From a virus (Duplodnaviria > Heunggongvirae > Uroviricota > Caudoviricetes): a DNA stretch of 19,056 bases. Position numbers and translations under genes: made by a program. The notes below the pieces were generated by a model that did no database searches, was not told the origin of the DNA, and saw nothing but the letters and a program-made list of their open reading frames with translations. Positions 1,584 to 17,391 of the stretch are shown here, in pieces (within the stretch, counting starts at the first letter, position 1; every line of letters begins with the position of its first letter). The stretch lies in the IMG/VR virus record IMGVR_UViG_2695420589_000003; one strand, written 5' to 3'.

Positions 1584-2187
1584 TGCGGGCCTCCTGTCGA
1601 ATCGCTGCCACCTTTAACGCCACCGTGCTTATGCGTATGCACTGTGATGCCGTTTGAGGTGAAATCGCCGCCGCTGTGCGTGATATTGCCGCTCATCGTT
1701 CCCCCTTTTGTGACGTCAAGCGTCGCTGTTCTCAGAAGGTCTGTGCATTCCACGACAGGCGTGTTCAGTGTCACGCTGATGGATGCCTGCAAAGTGGCCG
1801 TTTTCATGCCGCTTGCGCTCAGTGCGCCTGCGTCCGCGTCGTAGCGGAACACCGCGCCGTCCGGCGCGCTGACCACGATTTCTTTCAGGCTTTTGCCGGG
1901 TGCCGGAATGGCATCACTCCACAGGCTGCCGATTATCATGGCGGTTTCCGGGTTGCCGCCGATGCAGGCAATTGCCACCTGTTCGCCTGGTGATGGCGGA
2001 AACCACACGTTGNNNNNNNNNNNNNNNNNNNNNNNNNNNNNNNNNNNNNNNGCGTGGTGTTCCAGCGCAGCCAGCCTGTTTCCAGTTCGCCGCTGCGAAC
2101 GCGCACGCACCAGGATTCCTCATCAACTTCAGAGATGATCCCGGTGCGGATGATATTGCTCAGCAGTCGCATGAGTTCTGCGCTCAT
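1580..2187 (-). CDS. V: Baseplate spike/hub protein gpV; interrupted by masked run 2013-2051
   Basis: N-terminal part (MSAELMRLLSNIIRTGIISEVD..., ATG 2187, GGAGG RBS 7 nt upstream) and C-terminal part (...ITVHTHKHGGVKGGSDSTGGPQ) both resemble recalled P2 gpV; the two visible halves are in different frames across the mask. Confidence 0.8.
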
Positions 2188-2779
2188 CGTACAGCCTCCG
2201 CAATCCGGNNNNNNNNNNNNNNNNNNNNNNNNNNNNNNNNNNNNNNNNNNNNNNNNNNNNNNNNNNNNNNNNNNNNNNNNNNNNNNNNNNNNNNNNNNNN
2301 NNNNNNNNNNNNNNNNNNNNNNNNNNNNNNNNNNNNNNNNNNNNNNNNNNNNNNNNNNNNNNNNNNNNNNNNNNNNNNNNNNNNNNNNNNNNNNNNNNNN
2401 NNNNNNNNNNNNNNNNNNNNNNNNNNNNNNNNNNNNNNNNNNNNNNNNNNNNNNNNNNNNNNNNNNNNNNNNNNNNNNNNNNNNNNNNNNNNNNNNNNNN
2501 NNNNNNNNNNNNNNNNNNNNNNNNNNNNNNNNNNNNNNNNNNNNNNNNNNNNNNNNNNNNNNNNNNNNNNNNNNNNNNNNNNNNNNNNNNNNNNNNNNNN
2601 NNNNNNNNNNNNNNNNNNNNNNNNNNNNNNNNNNNNNNNNNNNNNNNNNNNNNNNNNNNNNNNNNNNNNNNNNNNNNNNNNNNNNNNNNNNNNNNNNNNN
2701 NNNNNNNNNNNNNNNNNNNNNNNNNNNNNNNNNNNNNNNNNNNNNNNNNNNNNNNNNNNNNNNNNNNNNNNNNNNNNNN

Positions 2780-2850: not shown

Positions 2851-3285
2851 NNNNNNNNNNNNNNNNNNNNNNNNNNNNNNNNNNNNNNNNNNNNNNNNNN
2901 NNNNNNNNNNNNNNNNNNNNNNNNNNNNNNNNNNNNNNNNNNNNNNNNNNNNNNNNNNNNNNNNNNNNNNNNNNNNNNNNNNNNNNNNNNNNNNNNNNNN
3001 NNNNNNNNNNNNNNNNNNNNNNNNNNNNNNNNNNNNNNNNNNNNNNNNNNNNNNNNNNNNNNNNNNNNNNNNNNNNNNNNNNNNNNNNNNNNNNNNNNNN
3101 NNNNNNNNNNNNNNNNNNNNNNNNNNNNNNNNNNNNNNNNNNNNNNNNNNNNNNNNNNNNNNNNNNNNNNNNNNNNNNNNNNNNNNNNNNNNNNNNNNNN
3201 NNNNNNNNNNNNNNNNNNNNNNNNNNNNNNNNNNNNNNNNNNNNNNNNNNNNNNNNNNNNNNNNNNNNNNNNNNNNNNNNNNNNN

Positions 3286-4544: not shown

Positions 4545-4562
4545 NNNNNNNNNNNNNNNNNN

Positions 4563-5312: not shown

Positions 5313-5811
5313 NNNNNNNNNNNNNNNNNNNNNNNNNNNNNNNNNNNNNNNNNNNNNNNNNNNNNNNNNNNNNNNNNNNNNNNNNNNNNNNNNNNNNNNN
5401 NNNNNNNNNNNNNNNNNNNNNNNNNNNNNNNNNNNNNNNNNNNNNNNNNNNNNNNNNNNNNNNNNNNNNNNNNNNNNNNNNNNNNNNNNNNNNNNNNNNN
5501 NNNNNNNNNNNNNNNNNNNNNNNNNNNNNNNNNNNNNNNNNNNNNNNNNNNNNNNNNNNNNNNNNNNNNNNNNNNNNNNNNNNNNNNNNNNNNNNNNNNN
5601 NNNNNNNNNNNNNNNNNNNNNNNNNNNNNNNNNNNNNNNNNNNNNNNNNNNNNNNNNNNNNNNNNNNNNNNNNNNNNNNNNNNNNNNNNNNNNNNNNNNN
5701 NNNNNNNNNNNNNNNNNNNNNNNNNNNNNNNNNNNNNNNNNNNNNNNNNNNNNNNNNNNNNNNNNNNNNNNNNNNNNGCGTCTTCTGGTGCGGCTGCGGA
5801 ATCGGCTTTTT

Positions 5812-6504
5812 TCAGGGCGCGGGAAAGGGNNNNNNNNNNNNNNNNNNNNNNNNNNNNGTTGCAATCTCGCGTTTCACACCTGCGTTCTGGTTCAGATGCA
5901 TCGCTTCGCGCAGCAGCTTCAGTGATGAGGCCATGCTGTCCGCATCGCTCAGGCCACGGCGGGCAAAGGCGCACGCCTTGCATAATTTGGCGCGCACTTC
6001 GTCCGGCATATCCTGGTTGGCGACAATTTCCCAAAGTGTGTCCAGTGGTTCGATAAAGACGGACAAATCCGCGTCGGCATCCGTCCCGGCCTGCGTCAGT
6101 ACCGGATTGCAGATTTCTTCGGTCAGCACTGTGGCAGCAGTACGGCCAAAGTTATCCGGCATGATGAGGTTGTGACGGACCGCATACGCACCAATACGCA
6201 GCGCAAGCGGAAGATCGCCGCAGTCAATCGCCCACACCATCAGCGTGGCAATCACTTCGTCCTGTTGCCCGCCGTCAGCCTCCAGCGTTCCCTCAATCCA
6301 GCCGGAAAAGTCCGGCAACAACGCTTTTTTGATGTCGGCTTTCGCGCTTCTGGCCTGTACGCCCTTAAGCCGGGCCTGTGCCAGACGCAGACGATACAGC
6401 ACCTCTTCATGCGCGGTACGCGCGGCGTGGTCCACACCTTCATTCGCCCGGCCTGCGCGCTGTGCCATCACGTTCTGCCAGTGTTGCTGTGCAGGAGTAA
6501 TCAT
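5812..6504 (-). CDS. M: Terminase small (endonuclease) subunit gpM; 3' end uncertain because it crosses mask 5830-5857
   Basis: ATG 6504 with GGAGAG RBS; the block MPDEVRAKL and overall profile resemble recalled P2 gpM; synteny N-M-L. Confidence 0.8.
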   Translation of the reverse strand: MITPAQQHWQNVMAQRAGRANEGVDHAARTAHEEVLYRLRLAQARLKGVQARSAKADIKKALLPDFSGWIEGTLEADGGQQDEVIATLMVWAIDCGDLPLALRIGAYAVRHNLIMPDNFGRTAATVLTEEICNPVLTQAGTDADADLSVFIEPLDTLWEIVANQDMPDEVRAKLCKACAFARRGLSDADSMASSLKLLREAMHLNQNAGVKREIAXXXXXXXXXXPFPAP

Positions 6505-8462: not shown

Positions 8463-8858
8463 AGTTTTTGCCCCTCTGACTGGTTCTTCAGTCATGATGG
8501 CAAAGCGTAACAGGCTGATACAAAGGGCTTTTGTTGTAAGAAAACGGCCAGAACAGGGGGNNNNNNNNNNNNNNNNNNNNNNNNNNNNNNNNNNNNNNNN
8601 NNNNNNNNNNNNNNNNNNNNNNNNNNNNNNNNNNNNNNNNNNNNNNNNNNNNNNNNNNNNNNNNNNNNNNNNNNNNNNNNNNNNNNNNNNNNNNNNNNNN
8701 NNNNNNNNNNNNNNNNNNNNNNNNNNNNNNNNNNNNNNNNNNNNNNNNNNNNNNNNNNNNNNNNNNNNNNNNNNNNNNNNNNNNNNNNNNNNNNNNNNNN
8801 NNNNNNNNNNNNNNNNNNNNNNNNNNNNNNNNNNNNNNNNNNNNNNNNNNNNNNNNNN

Positions 8859-11471: not shown

Positions 11472-11496
11472 CGGGGCATAAAAAATTTATGCCCCG
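11472..11496 (+). terminator. Perfect 11-bp stem / 3-nt loop hairpin (CGGGGCATAAA-AAA-TTTATGCCCCG) 27 nt after the Q stop
   Basis: Read directly; no U-tract follows on either strand, so not a canonical intrinsic terminator. Confidence 0.35.
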
Positions 11497-11936: not shown

Positions 11937-12122
11937 CTACCACTCGATCGGCACGTAGTCATTAAGTTCCGGAGACCAATTGCACTTTTCACATCTGTGT
12001 TTTCCATTCTGGCAGATACATAAACGATAACGGCCACAATGCGGGCACCCATTTTCACCATTATCATAATCACCGAGCGACCATTCCTGCATAAGCAGCT
12101 CTTCTTCATCATCATTTAGCAT
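11937..12122 (-). CDS. Small Cys-rich (zinc-ribbon-like) protein with an acidic N-terminus; island gene 5
   Basis: 61-aa ORF with ATG 12122, AGGGGGA RBS and a Cys cluster (C-x2-C-x5-C-x-C-x6-C-x2-C); last gene of the minus-strand island. Confidence 0.55.
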   Translation of the reverse strand: MLNDDEEELLMQEWSLGDYDNGENGCPHCGRYRLCICQNGKHRCEKCNWSPELNDYVPIEW

Positions 12123-12136
12123 TAATCCCCCTTGAG

Positions 12137-12376
12137 CTATTTACTCTTCTCGGCCCTCAAAATCATACGAGAACCATCATCCAGCTCCCAATTAATTTCA
12201 CCGCCTTCTGCCATGACTAGATGCCAAACGAGTTGAGCGGCCTCGTTGGTTACATCGCGACCGCGATCATTTCCTACGCGGCGTTTTGTTCCGTCTCCTA
12301 AGTCACGCATTTTTGCCAATACGATGGTTTTTGATAGCGGTGAAAAACCAAGCTGTAGTCGTGCTGAATTACTCAC
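12137..12376 (-). CDS. Hypothetical protein (79 aa from GTG, or 57 aa from the internal ATG); island gene 4
   Basis: ORF whose GTG start overlaps the stop of the upstream 174-aa ORF (GTGA); no recognisable motif. Confidence 0.4.
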   Translation of the reverse strand: MSNSARLQLGFSPLSKTIVLAKMRDLGDGTKRRVGNDRGRDVTNEAAQLVWHLVMAEGGEINWELDDGSRMILRAEKSK

Positions 12377-12897
12377 TGGCTGCCCCCTTTGTACTGTGTT
12401 AACTCTTCCTGCTCCTGCATCATGCGATTGACCTGAACGCGTGTGCGTCGAACGGCAAAATTAAATTGAAACATGAGCCGGAACATTTCTGATGCTTCCG
12501 TGTGAGCATCACGGATAGGTGACAGGCGGTACAGTTCTGCCTCCGTAGCTTGTTGAATCAATGACAGATCAAATTGAAGTGCGGGTCTGGTACATTTTGC
12601 ACATCTGGCAGCAAGCTCCGGTATTAGTCTCTTAACGAAGGTGTTTTGCACCGCTTTGTTGATTTGTGTCTGCATCCAAATCGCAAATTTCAGCGAACGC
12701 ATAAGTTTGATAGCCTCGGGCAGCGGCAGATAGATCATGCTGGTAGATTTGGGTGGTTGGTGAACCATCTTCACGGATACGCGATTTCGCAGCGTTCGGA
12801 AAATCGTGTTCCCAACAACAGCTTCTACGGATACAGGACAGGGAGCCAGACCAGCCCGCAGTGCTTCTTTCATTAGCATGTATTCGTATTTTTTCAT
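12373..12897 (-). CDS. Hypothetical basic protein (174 aa); island gene 3
   Basis: ATG 12897 with GAGGA RBS 6 nt upstream; no recognisable domain. Confidence 0.55.
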   Translation of the reverse strand: MKKYEYMLMKEALRAGLAPCPVSVEAVVGNTIFRTLRNRVSVKMVHQPPKSTSMIYLPLPEAIKLMRSLKFAIWMQTQINKAVQNTFVKRLIPELAARCAKCTRPALQFDLSLIQQATEAELYRLSPIRDAHTEASEMFRLMFQFNFAVRRTRVQVNRMMQEQEELTQYKGGSQ

Positions 12898-12957
12898 CGT
12901 GTTTTCCTCGTGCGGGGCGACAGTGCACCCCGATAAAATTAAAAGCCGTCAAATTCG

Positions 12958-13121
12958 TCATTCAGGAAATAATGCCCGGATATTCCCTGCTATCTGACTG
13001 GTTATCTGTGCGGTTGGTACTGGCTGTGGCACGGGGCGTTCTGTCCTGGTTTGTGTCACCGATAACGCCTCATCGTCAGCCCATGCAGCCAGTCGGTAAG
13101 CCTCTGCTGGATTCATTTTCA
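12958..13121 (-). CDS. C-terminal 53 codons of an ORF starting in mask 13122-13387; candidate ParR-like adaptor by position only
   Basis: Open minus-strand frame ending at stop 12958, immediately downstream of the ParM-like gene, which is where parR sits in parMRC loci. No motif verified. Confidence 0.3.
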
Positions 13122-13387
13122 NNNNNNNNNNNNNNNNNNNNNNNNNNNNNNNNNNNNNNNNNNNNNNNNNNNNNNNNNNNNNNNNNNNNNNNNNNNNNNN
13201 NNNNNNNNNNNNNNNNNNNNNNNNNNNNNNNNNNNNNNNNNNNNNNNNNNNNNNNNNNNNNNNNNNNNNNNNNNNNNNNNNNNNNNNNNNNNNNNNNNNN
13301 NNNNNNNNNNNNNNNNNNNNNNNNNNNNNNNNNNNNNNNNNNNNNNNNNNNNNNNNNNNNNNNNNNNNNNNNNNNNNNNNNNNNNNN

Positions 13388-14299
13388 CACCCCGTCCGCG
13401 ATGAAAGTCGCATTAACTCCGCAGGCTTCGCGGATAGCGGGTGCCACAATCTCCGCCCCTCCACCGACAACCATCACCCGCCCGTAACCCGAAAAACCCG
13501 CCAGCGCGCGGATCACGCGTTGTTTCAGTGTTTCTTCCTTTTCACGAATAACCGCCATCAGGCTGGCGTAATGCGCGTCATTGTGGATGTGCTGGCGCAG
13601 CCAGGCTTCATCATGGCGATGTTCGATAATGGTATTGGCGATGTGGTGACTGGTGCGCATACCGTTAGTGGCCATCACCGACAGTACGGCATCGGCCATC
13701 AGAGAAACGCCTACGTGTGGATCGCAAAACACCTGGCTGATACCTGCCAGTTGCCCCTGAACCTTTGCCACATCCAGCGTGGTTCCGCCCAAATCCACAA
13801 TCAGCAGGGATTCAAACGGACTCATGTCAGCCAGTGCCTTAAAGCCAGCCGGAATGGATTCAGGCATAACCCGCACGTTACGGATAGTGAATGCTTCGCC
13901 GTTCTGGTACTCCACCGGGCGCATAACGTTCGCTTTTTTGCGGTTGATGTTGGCCATGTCCGGCTGTGCGTTTGTGTCGAAATACTCGCTCAGTGGCAGG
14001 GTGACAACCACATCCACCTCCTGTGGCGTGATGCCTGATTTGACCAGCGCGTGATGAATGGCAATGACATTTACATCGCTGTACTGGTATTGCGTGTCGG
14101 TTGTCTGGACAAAGCGATCGCTGACCGGATCAAAACCATAGCGCACGCCATCAAGCATGTAGTTCGCGGGCTGCATGCCACCGAACGGCGCAGACCATTC
14201 CGACTTGAAGCTGTTCGGGCTGATGGCGTTGCGGCGTTCGCCGTTCTCAGTCCATGCCAGCTTGATGTTGGTGGAGCCGTCGTCGATACAAATTTTCAT
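13388..14299 (-). CDS. ParM/StbA-like actin-fold ATPase (304 codons visible; C-terminus masked)
   Basis: N-terminus MKICIDDGSTNIKLAW closely matches recalled R1 ParM; all three ASKHA nucleotide-binding motifs present: DDGSTNIK (14261-14284), LIVDLGGTTLD (about 13778-13795), VMVVGGGAE (13451-13477); AAGGA RBS before ATG 14299. Confidence 0.85.
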
Positions 14300-14330
14300 G
14301 TCGCTTTTCCTTATGTTGATTAATTAATCG

Positions 14331-14442
14331 TTTACGGGATTCTGAAATCCCGTTTTTGCCTGTTTTGTGCGCGCTTCATATATCGCTGCGCGTTTTTTGC
14401 TCATTTACGGGATTCGTGAGTCCCGTTTCTGTCTGTTTTTTG
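14331..14442. repeat. Two copies, 73 bp apart, of a ~36-bp element TTTACGGGATTC-(loop)-TCCCGTTT-T-rich; each forms a hairpin followed by a T-run on the plus strand
   Basis: Copy 1 at 14331-14366 (hairpin 14335-14352) in the A/ParM spacer; copy 2 at 14404-14442 inside the last codons of A; loop differences are compensatory. Confidence 0.6.
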
Positions 14443-16785
14443 TTTCCACTGGTCAGGCCACCCCGCAGCAGGTCTGCTTTGCGGCGGGCGCGTTCAGTGG
14501 TTTCACTGATTCTCTGTGCGTGCTCTGCGTCGCGGATGGCGCGCAGCATGTCAGAAAGCACGGTAACGGGTGTTTTCATGGTGTTCTGGTCCTGCTGAAG
14601 TGTGGATGCCAGGCGTGCGGCGGCTTCAGGGTCTGATGCCCCCAGCTGTGTCAGATAGCTGGCGACCGGGTTATGGCGGATCTCCGTGCTGCTTACGCCA
14701 TGATTACGGCTCAGGCGCTGCCAGAGCTGCGTGATTCGGCTGTCCGGGCGGGTATCCGGTTTGCGTACAATTTCAAATCCCTGCGGTGCAATGATGCTGC
14801 CGTCAACGTACAGACTGCCGCCCCGTAACAGGTGCTGCATCTGTTGTTCACCGATATGCAGGCCGAGAGATTCAGCAGACTCCCGCCATTCTTTAGCGAG
14901 TAATTCGTGGTTATCAGGCAAAGGCCGCTGCTGTTTGCGGCTCTGTGTCCAGCTCTGCATTTCATCACTGCTGTTTTTTGCCTGTTTGTCACGAAGCGAA
15001 CGCATCAGCGCCCGGCGTTCGTGCCGTTTCAGTGAGCGCATCCATTCATCCACATCAACGCCGTCAGGGAGCTGCGGCCACGGTGCTGGCCGTTCTTCCG
15101 GCTGTTCTGTCCCGTTGTTGTCCGTTTCCTGTACACGGGGACAGTTATTGCCACGAGTCCAAGGGGCGGCAGGGCCGCCCTGAAGGTCAAAACCATTTTC
15201 GCGGGCGCTGTCTTCCGCTTCCGGTTTGCGTCTTACCAGCTTCCAGTTATCCGGATGCGTGCACACACGGGAGGATTCCCCGATGAGTGGTGACCAGATC
15301 CCGTAAATCTGTACGCTCTGTTCGCCGTAATCGTTCAGCTCATCGGCGAGGTCGTAGGCGGTGCGAATCAGGTAGTCTTTGCGTGGAACAAGTACGCCGC
15401 CCTGTTTCTCTATGTAGGTGGCAAAACATCCGGCATCAGCGGCGGCAAGAACCGCATCCATTGCGTCATCCTTCAGCCGTTGCGGGCCTTCCGGGTTGCG
15501 TGCCATCTGGCTGGCAAGGCGGCGCAGTTCACGCCATACCTGGCGGGAGGGGATGCCAAAGAACTGGAACTGGCGGACCCGGTGAAGGCGCGCCCAGCCG
15601 ATGGCGCGTTCCACGCTCTCGGCCATTGATTTTCCGGTTTCGTGGTCAACGCGTGGCTTGCCCGTTTTCGGGTCGATGCCATCCACGGCGCGGCTGTCCA
15701 GGTTTTTCCCGATGTAGGTGGCGATGTAGCTGGTTGGCGTGCCTTTTGAGCCGTCTACATACTCCGCCTTAAAGCGCGGAGTTATGTCATCGCCCAGCTC
15801 GTGACGATCTTCCTGAATGGCAATATCGCGGGTGTGGGACACAATGGTGTCGATTTCTTCCGGATGAGCAAAGACCATCATATGCCAGTGCACGGTGCCG
15901 TCATGGTGAGGCTCCGCCGTGCGGATGCCATACCAGCGCAGGCCGTCGCGGTTCAGTTTTTTGCGGACCGTCGCAAAAAACGTGTTAACCAGGTAATCGC
16001 TGGAGTCGCGCATTGTGGCCCCGTTCCATTTGGGATTCGGATGACCGTTCTCCGTTGTGGCGTGGTATTTTGACGGGCAGGTGACAGTCAGAAACACCGC
16101 TTTGTCGCCACGGGCTTCGGCCAGAAGTTCCAGCCCCTTCATGGTGGCCATCATTTCTGCCTTACGGTGAACCGGGTTACTTACTCCCGCGTAATACACC
16201 GTCTCGAGATCAATCGTGAACCCGTCTTCATTTTCCAGCATGAAACTTTTCAGGAAATCGCGTGTTTTCTCGCGCTGTGCGCGAAACTCGCTTAACGCGT
16301 CCTGGCTCAGATAGGGCGATGTTTTTCTGGAAACCAGACAGGCGGCGCGAAGTTGTTCTTCTCTCCACTCGCAACGTAACAGCCACAGTTTGCGTTTCCA
16401 CCATTCCGCACAGGTCAGGCGAAGGATTGCGCCCGGCAGCAGTTCTGTGTCCGGTTCGTGCCTCCGGTCTTTGTCTGTTGTCAGTGCGTCATAATGCGGA
16501 GGCATGGCGTGTAAGTGTAACGCCATGCGGGCCAGCATCTGATACGCCTTCAGCGTTACATCCATGGTCAGCTCGCCATCAGTCGCGCCAAAACCATCGC
16601 AGAGTTTTTCGAAGGTGCTGCTGAACATCGCCGCCGTCATGGTGGCCAGCGTCTGTATCTGGTGTTTGTTGAGTTGCGGCAGGTAAAGCAAATCGTCCAG
16701 GCGTTCACGTCCGGCAAGGGAGCGATAACCCGGTGTCAGCCAGTGTCCGTCAGTGCGATCCAGACGTTCGAATATTTTGCGCAGG
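14376..16785 (-). CDS. A: Rolling-circle replication initiator gpA (HUH endonuclease); 5' end in mask 16786-17312
   Basis: Contains EPHHDGTVHWHMMVF (HUH motif) and YIATYIGKNLD (paired catalytic Tyr), matching recalled P2 gpA; about 803 codons visible. Confidence 0.9.
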
Positions 16786-17391
16786 NNNNNNNNNNNNNNN
16801 NNNNNNNNNNNNNNNNNNNNNNNNNNNNNNNNNNNNNNNNNNNNNNNNNNNNNNNNNNNNNNNNNNNNNNNNNNNNNNNNNNNNNNNNNNNNNNNNNNNN
16901 NNNNNNNNNNNNNNNNNNNNNNNNNNNNNNNNNNNNNNNNNNNNNNNNNNNNNNNNNNNNNNNNNNNNNNNNNNNNNNNNNNNNNNNNNNNNNNNNNNNN
17001 NNNNNNNNNNNNNNNNNNNNNNNNNNNNNNNNNNNNNNNNNNNNNNNNNNNNNNNNNNNNNNNNNNNNNNNNNNNNNNNNNNNNNNNNNNNNNNNNNNNN
17101 NNNNNNNNNNNNNNNNNNNNNNNNNNNNNNNNNNNNNNNNNNNNNNNNNNNNNNNNNNNNNNNNNNNNNNNNNNNNNNNNNNNNNNNNNNNNNNNNNNNN
17201 NNNNNNNNNNNNNNNNNNNNNNNNNNNNNNNNNNNNNNNNNNNNNNNNNNNNNNNNNNNNNNNNNNNNNNNNNNNNNNNNNNNNNNNNNNNNNNNNNNNN
17301 NNNNNNNNNNNNCGGGGATCCCCGTTCCTTCACGCCCCACTGCGTGGCGCGGTTGTTGCCAGTCCCTGATGTACTCTGCCGTCATAGTGAT

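Follow-up and report, generated by a model that had tools for sequence, protein, structure and literature searches.

The gene following parM in the 19,056-nt stretch of viral DNA analysed here (hereafter the window), whose 5′ half is masked, is by homology an ordinary ParR-type centromere-binding adaptor of ParM. Together with parM and two dyad repeats upstream of it, this gene makes up what is, on balance, probably a complete R1-type (type II, actin-like) ParMRC partition cassette. The source element of the window is a P2-like (P88/Xuanwuvirus-type) prophage of an enterobacterium, in which the cassette forms an accessory module just downstream of gpA. As read from its sequence, it would be a ParMRC of the R1 type whose ParR is shortened and whose parC is minimal, neither adaptor-less nor centromere-less, and it departs from the textbook locus in three respects: the missing iteron array, the shortened ParR and the integrating phage host. 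Public annotation already gives names to the genes themselves, and published work has mentioned the partition genes of P88. The features are listed in Table 1.

Table 1. Features of the partition cassette, its neighbouring cargo genes and the masked runs of the window.
Feature	Coordinates	Strand	Description
parM	13388..14299	-	start 14299; codons 1-304 visible (319 in all); actin-like ATPase, R1 ParM/StbA family
parM leader	14300..14333	-	ribosome-binding site AAGGAAAAG and AT-rich element ATTAATTAATCAA, conserved across lineages
Proximal dyad	14334..14353		ACGGGATT-TCAG-AATCCCGT; GGG-N10-CCC, first G at -52 from the parM ATG; candidate parC half/operator
Distal dyad	14407..14426		ACGGGACT-CACG-AATCCCGT; first G at -125; candidate second ParR site
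Whole candidate parC	14328..14442		two 42-nt direct repeats flanking a core of about 31 nt
Masked stretch	13122..13387	-	266 N; by homology parM codons 305-319 and stop, spacer ACCA, parR codons 1-50
Visible 3′ part of parR	12958..13121	-	2 nt of codon 50, codons 51-103 and stop 12960-12958
Cargo gene, 174 aa	12373-12897	-	no Pfam, PHROG or PADLOC match
Cargo gene, 79 aa	12137-12376	-	DUF7446
Cargo gene, 61 aa	11937-12122	-	four-cysteine motif, sub-threshold zinc-ribbon match
N-run	2013-2051		39 N vs 13 in EA2 prophage
N-run	2209-2779		571 N vs 486 in EA2 prophage
N-run	2851-3285		435 N vs 334 in EA2 prophage
N-run	5313-5777		465 N vs 433 in EA2 prophage
N-run	5830-5857		28 N vs 0 in EA2 prophage
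N-run	8561-8858		298 N vs 267 in EA2 prophage
N-run	13122-13387		266 N vs 200 in EA2 prophage

A near-identical prophage of E. coli EA2 (96-98% identical to the window) served as the reference for comparison. Its annotated minus strand runs from early genes through the replication endonuclease gpA and ParM to a 'plasmid partitioning/stability family protein' and cargo genes, while the portal and terminase genes converge from the opposite side. By this gene order, the cassette belongs to the variable cargo that separates gene A from the portal gene. In the window, the minus strand from 13121 to 12958 reads (C)TG AAA ATG AAT ... GAA TGA and translates as K-MNPAEAYRLAAWADDEALSVTQTRTERPVPQPVPTAQITSQIAGNIRALFPE* (i.e. 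K-MNPAEAYRL...NIRALFPE), in a frame that stays open into the N-run. This amounts to 53 codons and a stop, the C-terminal portion that a preliminary description of the sequence had reported as alone visible. The same description had estimated that an ORF of roughly 100-110 codons would fit the space; the homologues show 103 aa, and the visible codons match residues 51-103 of the ParR of homologous prophages. They comprise the end of helix 3, a hypervariable Pro/Gln/Thr-rich linker and a conserved C-terminal helix ending ...SQ(I/M)AGNIRALFPE.

Since the 5′ half of parR is masked in the window, its identity rests on homologues whose flanks are 97-99% identical. By this comparison, the masked part of parR encodes the ribbon-helix-helix strand RRISFYLKP and helices 1-2, and in the homologues a Shine-Dalgarno sequence (AAGGAG) precedes the ACCA spacer ahead of the gene. 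In EA2, ParM has 319 aa and a 103-aa gene begins 4 nt past its stop, behind AAGGAG. The interval corresponding to the mask is 200 nt long in 118/118 loci that have both flanking anchors, and exists in 43 distinct versions. All 118 encode the end of ParM (PQFALVNGLYAMDKE*), the spacer and the start of ParR (MTTPTRRISFYLKP...), free of stops. The true length of the masked stretch, as judged from these homologues, is thus almost certainly 200 nt. A 66-nt insertion, as the 266 N against 200 nt would imply, was considered and rejected because the comparable masks are inflated even within conserved structural genes. There are nine N-runs in the window, and each of the seven that are comparable with the EA2 prophage exceeds the homologous stretch; those at 4545-4562 and 16786-17312 fall outside the comparison. 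As all seven masks are inflated, mask length and frames read across masks are uninformative.

The 103-aa homologue matches Pfam PF10784 (Plasmid_stab_B; E 1.6e-24, 85.9 bits against the curated gathering cutoff of 25) over positions 1-71 of the 72 in the model, and this domain is present in every homologue found. The protein also matches PHROG 2515 'partition protein' (1.3e-58). For pairwise comparison the R1 parMR locus was fetched; prophage and R1 ParR share 34% identity across residues 5-60, the N-terminal domain. A profile of the prophage ParRs finds as its best PDB match the ParR of pB171 (2JD3, 'StbB'), with an E-value of 5.5e-7 when R1 ParR is included in the profile and 5.6e-3 when it is left out, and the match spans the ribbon-helix-helix strand and helices 1-3. 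This structure was reached by profile only, as a phmmer search with a single ParR sequence against the PDB sequences gave no match. The suggestion of the preliminary description that the gene downstream of ParM could be a ParR-like adaptor is therefore upheld by PF10784, by homology to R1 ParR and by the pB171 profile match; the ribbon-helix-helix N-terminus for which it proposed to look is found on the mask-filling homologues, through PF10784 and 2JD3.

Only 40 relatives came out of an exhaustive profile search across 1.84 billion representatives; they gave a more diverse family alignment, which was then used for AlphaFold. The resulting model (mean pLDDT 80) has an extended N-terminus that includes the strand RRISFYLKP, unpaired in the monomer. 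Three helices follow (18-29, 32-52 and 54-61), then disorder over residues 62-85 and a last helix at 86-100. The family alignment reveals that plasmid-type ParRs carry some 30 extra residues after helix 3 (TTxxxIxxxxxSVLP, helices 4-5) which the prophage ParR lacks. A C-terminal tail of the form N(A/I)xxLF(P/G) is common to the family, and ...NIRALFPE of the prophage protein aligns with the R1 tail ...KKNAMKLIN. The tail of ParR is the element that binds a hydrophobic pocket of ParM (reviewed in PMC5016525). A first alignment had set NIRALFPE against the internal R1 sequence NILRSLFPKE; this was overturned by the broader family alignment, which places it at the true C-terminal tail.

Selection across loci follows the same division. 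Pairwise pN/pS is 0.08 in ParM; within ParR it is 0.10 over codons 1-64, rises to 0.59 in the linker and drops to 0.05 over the final 15 codons. At the sequence level, this is the pattern expected of a working adaptor, with two constrained ends and a free tether. Between loci L009-L166, ParM is 98-100% identical and ParR identity falls to as little as 53%. The divergence peaks in the linker (parR codons 65-88, about 13003-13077 in the window) and continues into the downstream cargo; the variable region seems to have one of its recombination boundaries within parR. Enterobacterial prophage parR genes, 90-93% identical, were also met in two assemblies labelled as Firmicutes (a contig of Vagococcus sp. 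WN89Y, L005, and a 229-nt contig of Fredinandcohnia humi, L007), where they probably represent contamination.

Like the adaptor, its partner is a member of the R1/pB171 families. ParM matches the Pfam domains StbA_N (1.8e-82) and ParM C-terminal domain (1.3e-68) and is 47% identical to R1 ParM over its full length; the motifs DDGSTNIK, MPESIPAG, DLGGTTLD and GGGAE are identical or nearly so in the alignment of the two. Upstream of the gene, the AT-rich element ATTAATTAATCAA may contain the -10 of a ParR-controlled promoter, and elements resembling (T)ATTAA(T/C)CAA occupy the same place in two divergent P2-like phages (L168 and L169). A promoter scan of the parM upstream region found no consensus sigma-70 promoter. 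Autoregulation of parMR by ParR we infer only.

Two hairpin repeats upstream of ParM had been pointed out in the preliminary description. They are real, and a closer inspection shows them to be direct repeats of 42 nt, at 14328-14369 and 14401-14442, which lie 73 nt apart and share 81% identity. One dyad of the form ACGGGAyT-N4-rAnTCCCGT is held by each of them (14334-14353 and 14407-14426). This pattern occurs twice in the window against an expectation of 0.04. The distal dyad falls within the last 22 codons of the upstream gpA, whose stop is at 14378-14376. No tandem array of short direct iterons is present upstream of parM in the window, which offers four half-sites only and not the 8-10 tandem 10-11-bp direct iterons of a textbook parC. 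A-tract phasing near 10.3 nt, which would point to curvature, is weak and marginal there, being reached by 190 of 5000 shuffles. What was found instead are cis repeats upstream of parM that are bound to the cassette and co-vary with it, as seen in the boundary of the cassette, in the association of the motif with parM and in the lineage-specific sites described below.

The boundary is visible in two loci in which a different gene precedes parM (L083 and L065). Their homology to the window begins about 17 nt before the distal dyad, which coincides with the start of the distal 42-nt repeat and marks it as the left edge of a mobile par cassette. The motif is also closely associated with parM. An exact-pattern scan of viral contigs recovered 119 new loci, and in 109 of the 112 that could be evaluated it lay directly upstream of parM, the exceptions being unrelated single palindromes. 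Scans of viral contigs with P0087 and P0086 returned zero loci. In one viral contig (L074) the two repeats give way to one hybrid copy, some 60 nt ahead of parM; it looks like a natural one-dyad variant produced by a deletion through recombination between the 42-nt direct repeats. In every case the ORF that precedes parM runs across the distal repeat and stops at the same TGA (14376-14445 in the window, minus strand), ending in the tail peptide KKQTETG(L/F)TNPVNEQKTRxDI. This peptide, which may matter or may come from a frame open by chance, is carried by the 946-aa gpA in the window, by a separate 155-aa ORF after a 783-aa gpA in L083 (2493-2960), and by a free-standing 31-aa ORF with its own Shine-Dalgarno sequence in L065 (2866-2961).

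Within the P88 lineage the ParR DNA-binding domain and the sites are both nearly invariant, so that the comparison of ParR type with site sequence draws on divergent lineages. In L168 and L169, where ParM is 62% and ParR about 40% identical, two GGG-N10-CCC sites of different sequence lie at -59/-131 and -55/-128 from the ATG, a spacing of 72-73 nt; in the background, so loose a motif turns up about once every 5-9 kb. Another relative, L170, has about ten tandem 11-bp iterons (AAATGGGxxxG) before parM with the same GGG core, and inverted units of 22 bp, with ACGGGAACGA as their core, are found in L171, L175, L176 and L177. The half-site core shared by these relatives identifies AAACGGGAyT of the window as an iteron of this family, arranged in inverted pairs. 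A further relative (L172; GCA_013373955.1 contig, parM at 2043) is in a plasmid context, with PIN toxins and NikA-like genes nearby. Its ParR strand is nearly the same (RKISFYLKP) and its upstream region is AT-rich and free of GGG-core repeats, a mismatch of strand and site which means that the site specificity of the family is not readable from the strand sequence alone. A third GGG-N10-CCC dyad (CGGGGCGACAGTGCACCCCG) was noticed in the window at 12913-12932, 25 nt after the parR stop, where it immediately precedes the ribosome-binding site of the gene that follows. It may be one more ParR site or simply a stem-loop, and L168 and L169 have no equivalent of it.

On this sequence evidence, the two upstream repeats are most likely a small centromere/operator of ParR, and they are put forward as a candidate for it. 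The earlier statement that no parC-like iteron array is visible thus holds as far as a tandem array is concerned but misleads, in that the dyads behave as a reduced centromere; the absence of a centromere that it implied is probably wrong. With an adaptor and a plausible cis site in place, the premise is lost on which the ATPase had been considered more likely repurposed, and ParM is here neither orphaned nor obviously repurposed.

The locus resembles the ParMRC system of R1/NR1 (stbA/stbB/parC) in the order of cis site, parM and parR, in the full-length identity of ParM (47%), in the alignment of the C-terminal tail motif of ParR, and in a cis site split into two repeat blocks around a core, of which the prophage has a version in miniature. 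In R1, parC consists of 2 x 5 iterons around the promoter (PMC2241845). These are direct 11-bp iterons, whereas the prophage has two dyads, or four half-sites, of another sequence. Moreover, R1 ParR has 116 aa against the 103 aa of the prophage protein, which is without the helix 4-5 segment, and the host of the R1 system is a low-copy plasmid whereas that of the cassette is an integrating P2-like phage. The ParR of pB171 (StbB, PDB 2JD3) is longer still at 130 aa, with about 20% identity to the prophage ParR. Its domain is built as beta1-alpha1-alpha2-alpha3-alpha4-alpha5 (PMC5016525), and the segment of helices 4-5 belongs to the domain that builds the helical array. In the prophage ParR a disordered, fast-evolving linker replaces the segment aligned to these plasmid helices.

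The closest functional precedent for the prophage cassette is srpMRC of the SXT/R391 ICEs, a working type II actin-like partition locus of a normally integrated element (Carraro et al. 2015, PMC4489591). As a centromere, only four short repeats, direct and inverted, precede its motor gene, and a stabilising effect of the locus on the transient excised form has been demonstrated (PMC4489591). According to the same paper, homology to ParR cannot be recognised in SrpR, and SrpM is no more than a distant relative of R1 ParM, whereas both prophage proteins are clear members of the R1 family; the prophage system is known here from sequence. Furthermore, the element carrying srpMRC is an ICE replicating from oriT and not a phage.

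In the mechanism that we propose, ParR dimers would dock on the two dyads (at -52 and -125), with the N-terminal ribbon-helix-helix inserted in the GGG/CCC half-sites, and this binding would repress or tune parMR expression and build a small segrosome. By way of the flexible linker, the conserved amphipathic helix at the C-terminus (...NIRALFPE) would then be offered to ParM-ATP filaments at their growing ends. Filament growth would push circular copies of the phage genome apart while they are extrachromosomal, be it after injection, after excision or in gpA-driven replication, and loss or clumping of the episome would be prevented. This role of the cassette in an integrating phage is one that we infer; the four half-sites, as opposed to ten iterons in R1, and the absence of the approximately 30-residue segment of helices 4-5 count against it. 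No experiments on the prophage ParMRC were found in the literature searched. The cassette places a plasmid partition machine in a very common integrating prophage. The shortened ParR and two-dyad parC amount to a naturally minimised ParMRC, which could serve to ask how many adaptor sites a ParM filament end needs.

The distribution of the cassette was assessed with a 2.2-kb query (gpA end, parM, parR and the next gene) against 5426 complete E. coli genomes. At least a partial match was found in 1445 of these, and the query also matches phages P88, PhiSM and their relatives. The location was chromosomal in 1598 of the 1644 matched places. The element is therefore not the predominantly autonomous replicon that the term phage-plasmid denotes, and with nearly all copies chromosomal a long-term or permanent plasmid lifestyle is not supported. 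P88 was flagged as a possible phage-plasmid by Pfeifer et al. on gene content alone (PMC7969092). A further reading, which we regard as unlikely but worth stating, is that P88/Xuanwuvirus-type phages are facultative phage-plasmids, in which gpA/ori and a streamlined ParMRC would maintain a low-copy episome for generations, for example where attB is occupied or absent, or in a carrier state. Were this true of a mini-ParR and a four-half-site parC, a type II segrosome would need far fewer adaptor sites than the R1 paradigm holds. A single phage-sized circular record was encountered (NZ_CP148288.1, L167; 34.5 kb). Deposited as an E. coli plasmid of 34,461 bp, it is a complete P88-like phage genome that carries integrase, cox, gpA, parM and parR, and it is either an excised replicating form captured by assembly or a true episomal state.

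The same parts might also do another job, with filament and adaptor moving or organising phage DNA during the lytic cycle for efficient replication or packaging, and not securing the inheritance of an episome when the cell divides. Such a system exists in the Corynebacterium glutamicum prophage CGP3, where AlpC forms an actin-like filament and the adaptor AlpA links it to the phage DNA; AlpA binds repeats (alpS) upstream of its operon, and the role shown is in efficient viral DNA replication (PMC4446434, PMC5539076). Both cases thus involve an integrated prophage with an actin-like filament former and a repeat-binding adaptor, but CGP3 has a Gram-positive host and the role there is replication and not partition. 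AlpC belongs to another actin-like family than ParM, and to our knowledge AlpA is unrelated to ParR. Besides this precedent (PMC4446434, PMC5539076), a lytic role draws on the nearly constant integration of the prophage and on the position of parMR directly after gpA, with no minus-strand terminator between them and no promoter of its own detected, which suggests co-expression with the replication gene in the early operon. Against it stands the close homology of the proteins to a true partition pair of plasmids; nor is it obvious why a short lytic cycle, rich in genome copies, should need a device for low-copy segregation. We consider a lytic role doubtful as the explanation of the cassette; it and partition are not mutually exclusive.

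The two hairpin repeats might also be no centromere but RNA structures (for processing or stability, or plus-strand terminators) or sites of gpA/ori, with ParM and ParR repurposed and devoid of a cis site. The sites of the window do fold well (-10.7 and -9.0 kcal/mol; z -3.8 and -2.7), the plus-strand sites scored as terminator-like, and the distal site overlaps the 3′ end of gpA. However, L168 and L169 keep the GGG-N10-CCC pattern with its number, spacing and position, and three of their four sites show no significant folding (z -2.5, +0.3, -0.7 and +0.25). Moreover, no U-tract follows the stems on the coding strand, no plus-strand gene enters the repeats and an Rfam search returned zero matches. 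A gpA/ori site is at odds with the repeats travelling with parM and not with gpA. Taken together, these data render RNA structures or gpA/ori sites quite improbable, and a ParR-binding site remains the preferred interpretation of the repeats.

The surroundings of the cassette raise the idea of competition, that is, incompatibility with or exclusion of plasmids or phages bearing related par sites, or an unrecognised defence module. The cassette sits between gpA and the portal gene, and the adjoining cargo genes are variable. This gap presumably corresponds to the tin/old cargo region of P2. Competition is nevertheless very improbable: PADLOC-DB gave no match at E <= 0.01 for four proteins (ParM, ParR and neighbours), the sequence of the sites is unlike that of the R1 iterons, and wherever a lineage was examined, the cassette had retained cis sites of its own. 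Least credible of all is the idea of a plasmid par locus in decay, left behind and now functionless, to which a ParR shorter than plasmid ParRs, a lost iteron array and a parC down to two sites might point, since this is largely refuted by the strong purifying selection on ParM and both functional ends of ParR, and is opposed by ORFs intact in 118/118 loci, by the match in 1445 of 5426 complete E. coli genomes and by the maintenance of the reduced architecture in lineages at only about 40% ParR identity.

Downstream of the partition cassette, the three small genes at 11937-12897 are replaced in the EA2 prophage by an ead/Ea22-like gene, which identifies this cargo as a variable region. Beyond them, a perfect 11-bp inverted repeat (CGGGGCATAAA-N3-TTTATGCCCCG) lies at 11472-11496, just past the stop of the portal gene (11445). 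Situated between the late and the early/cargo transcription units, which converge, it probably terminates the late terminase-portal operon.
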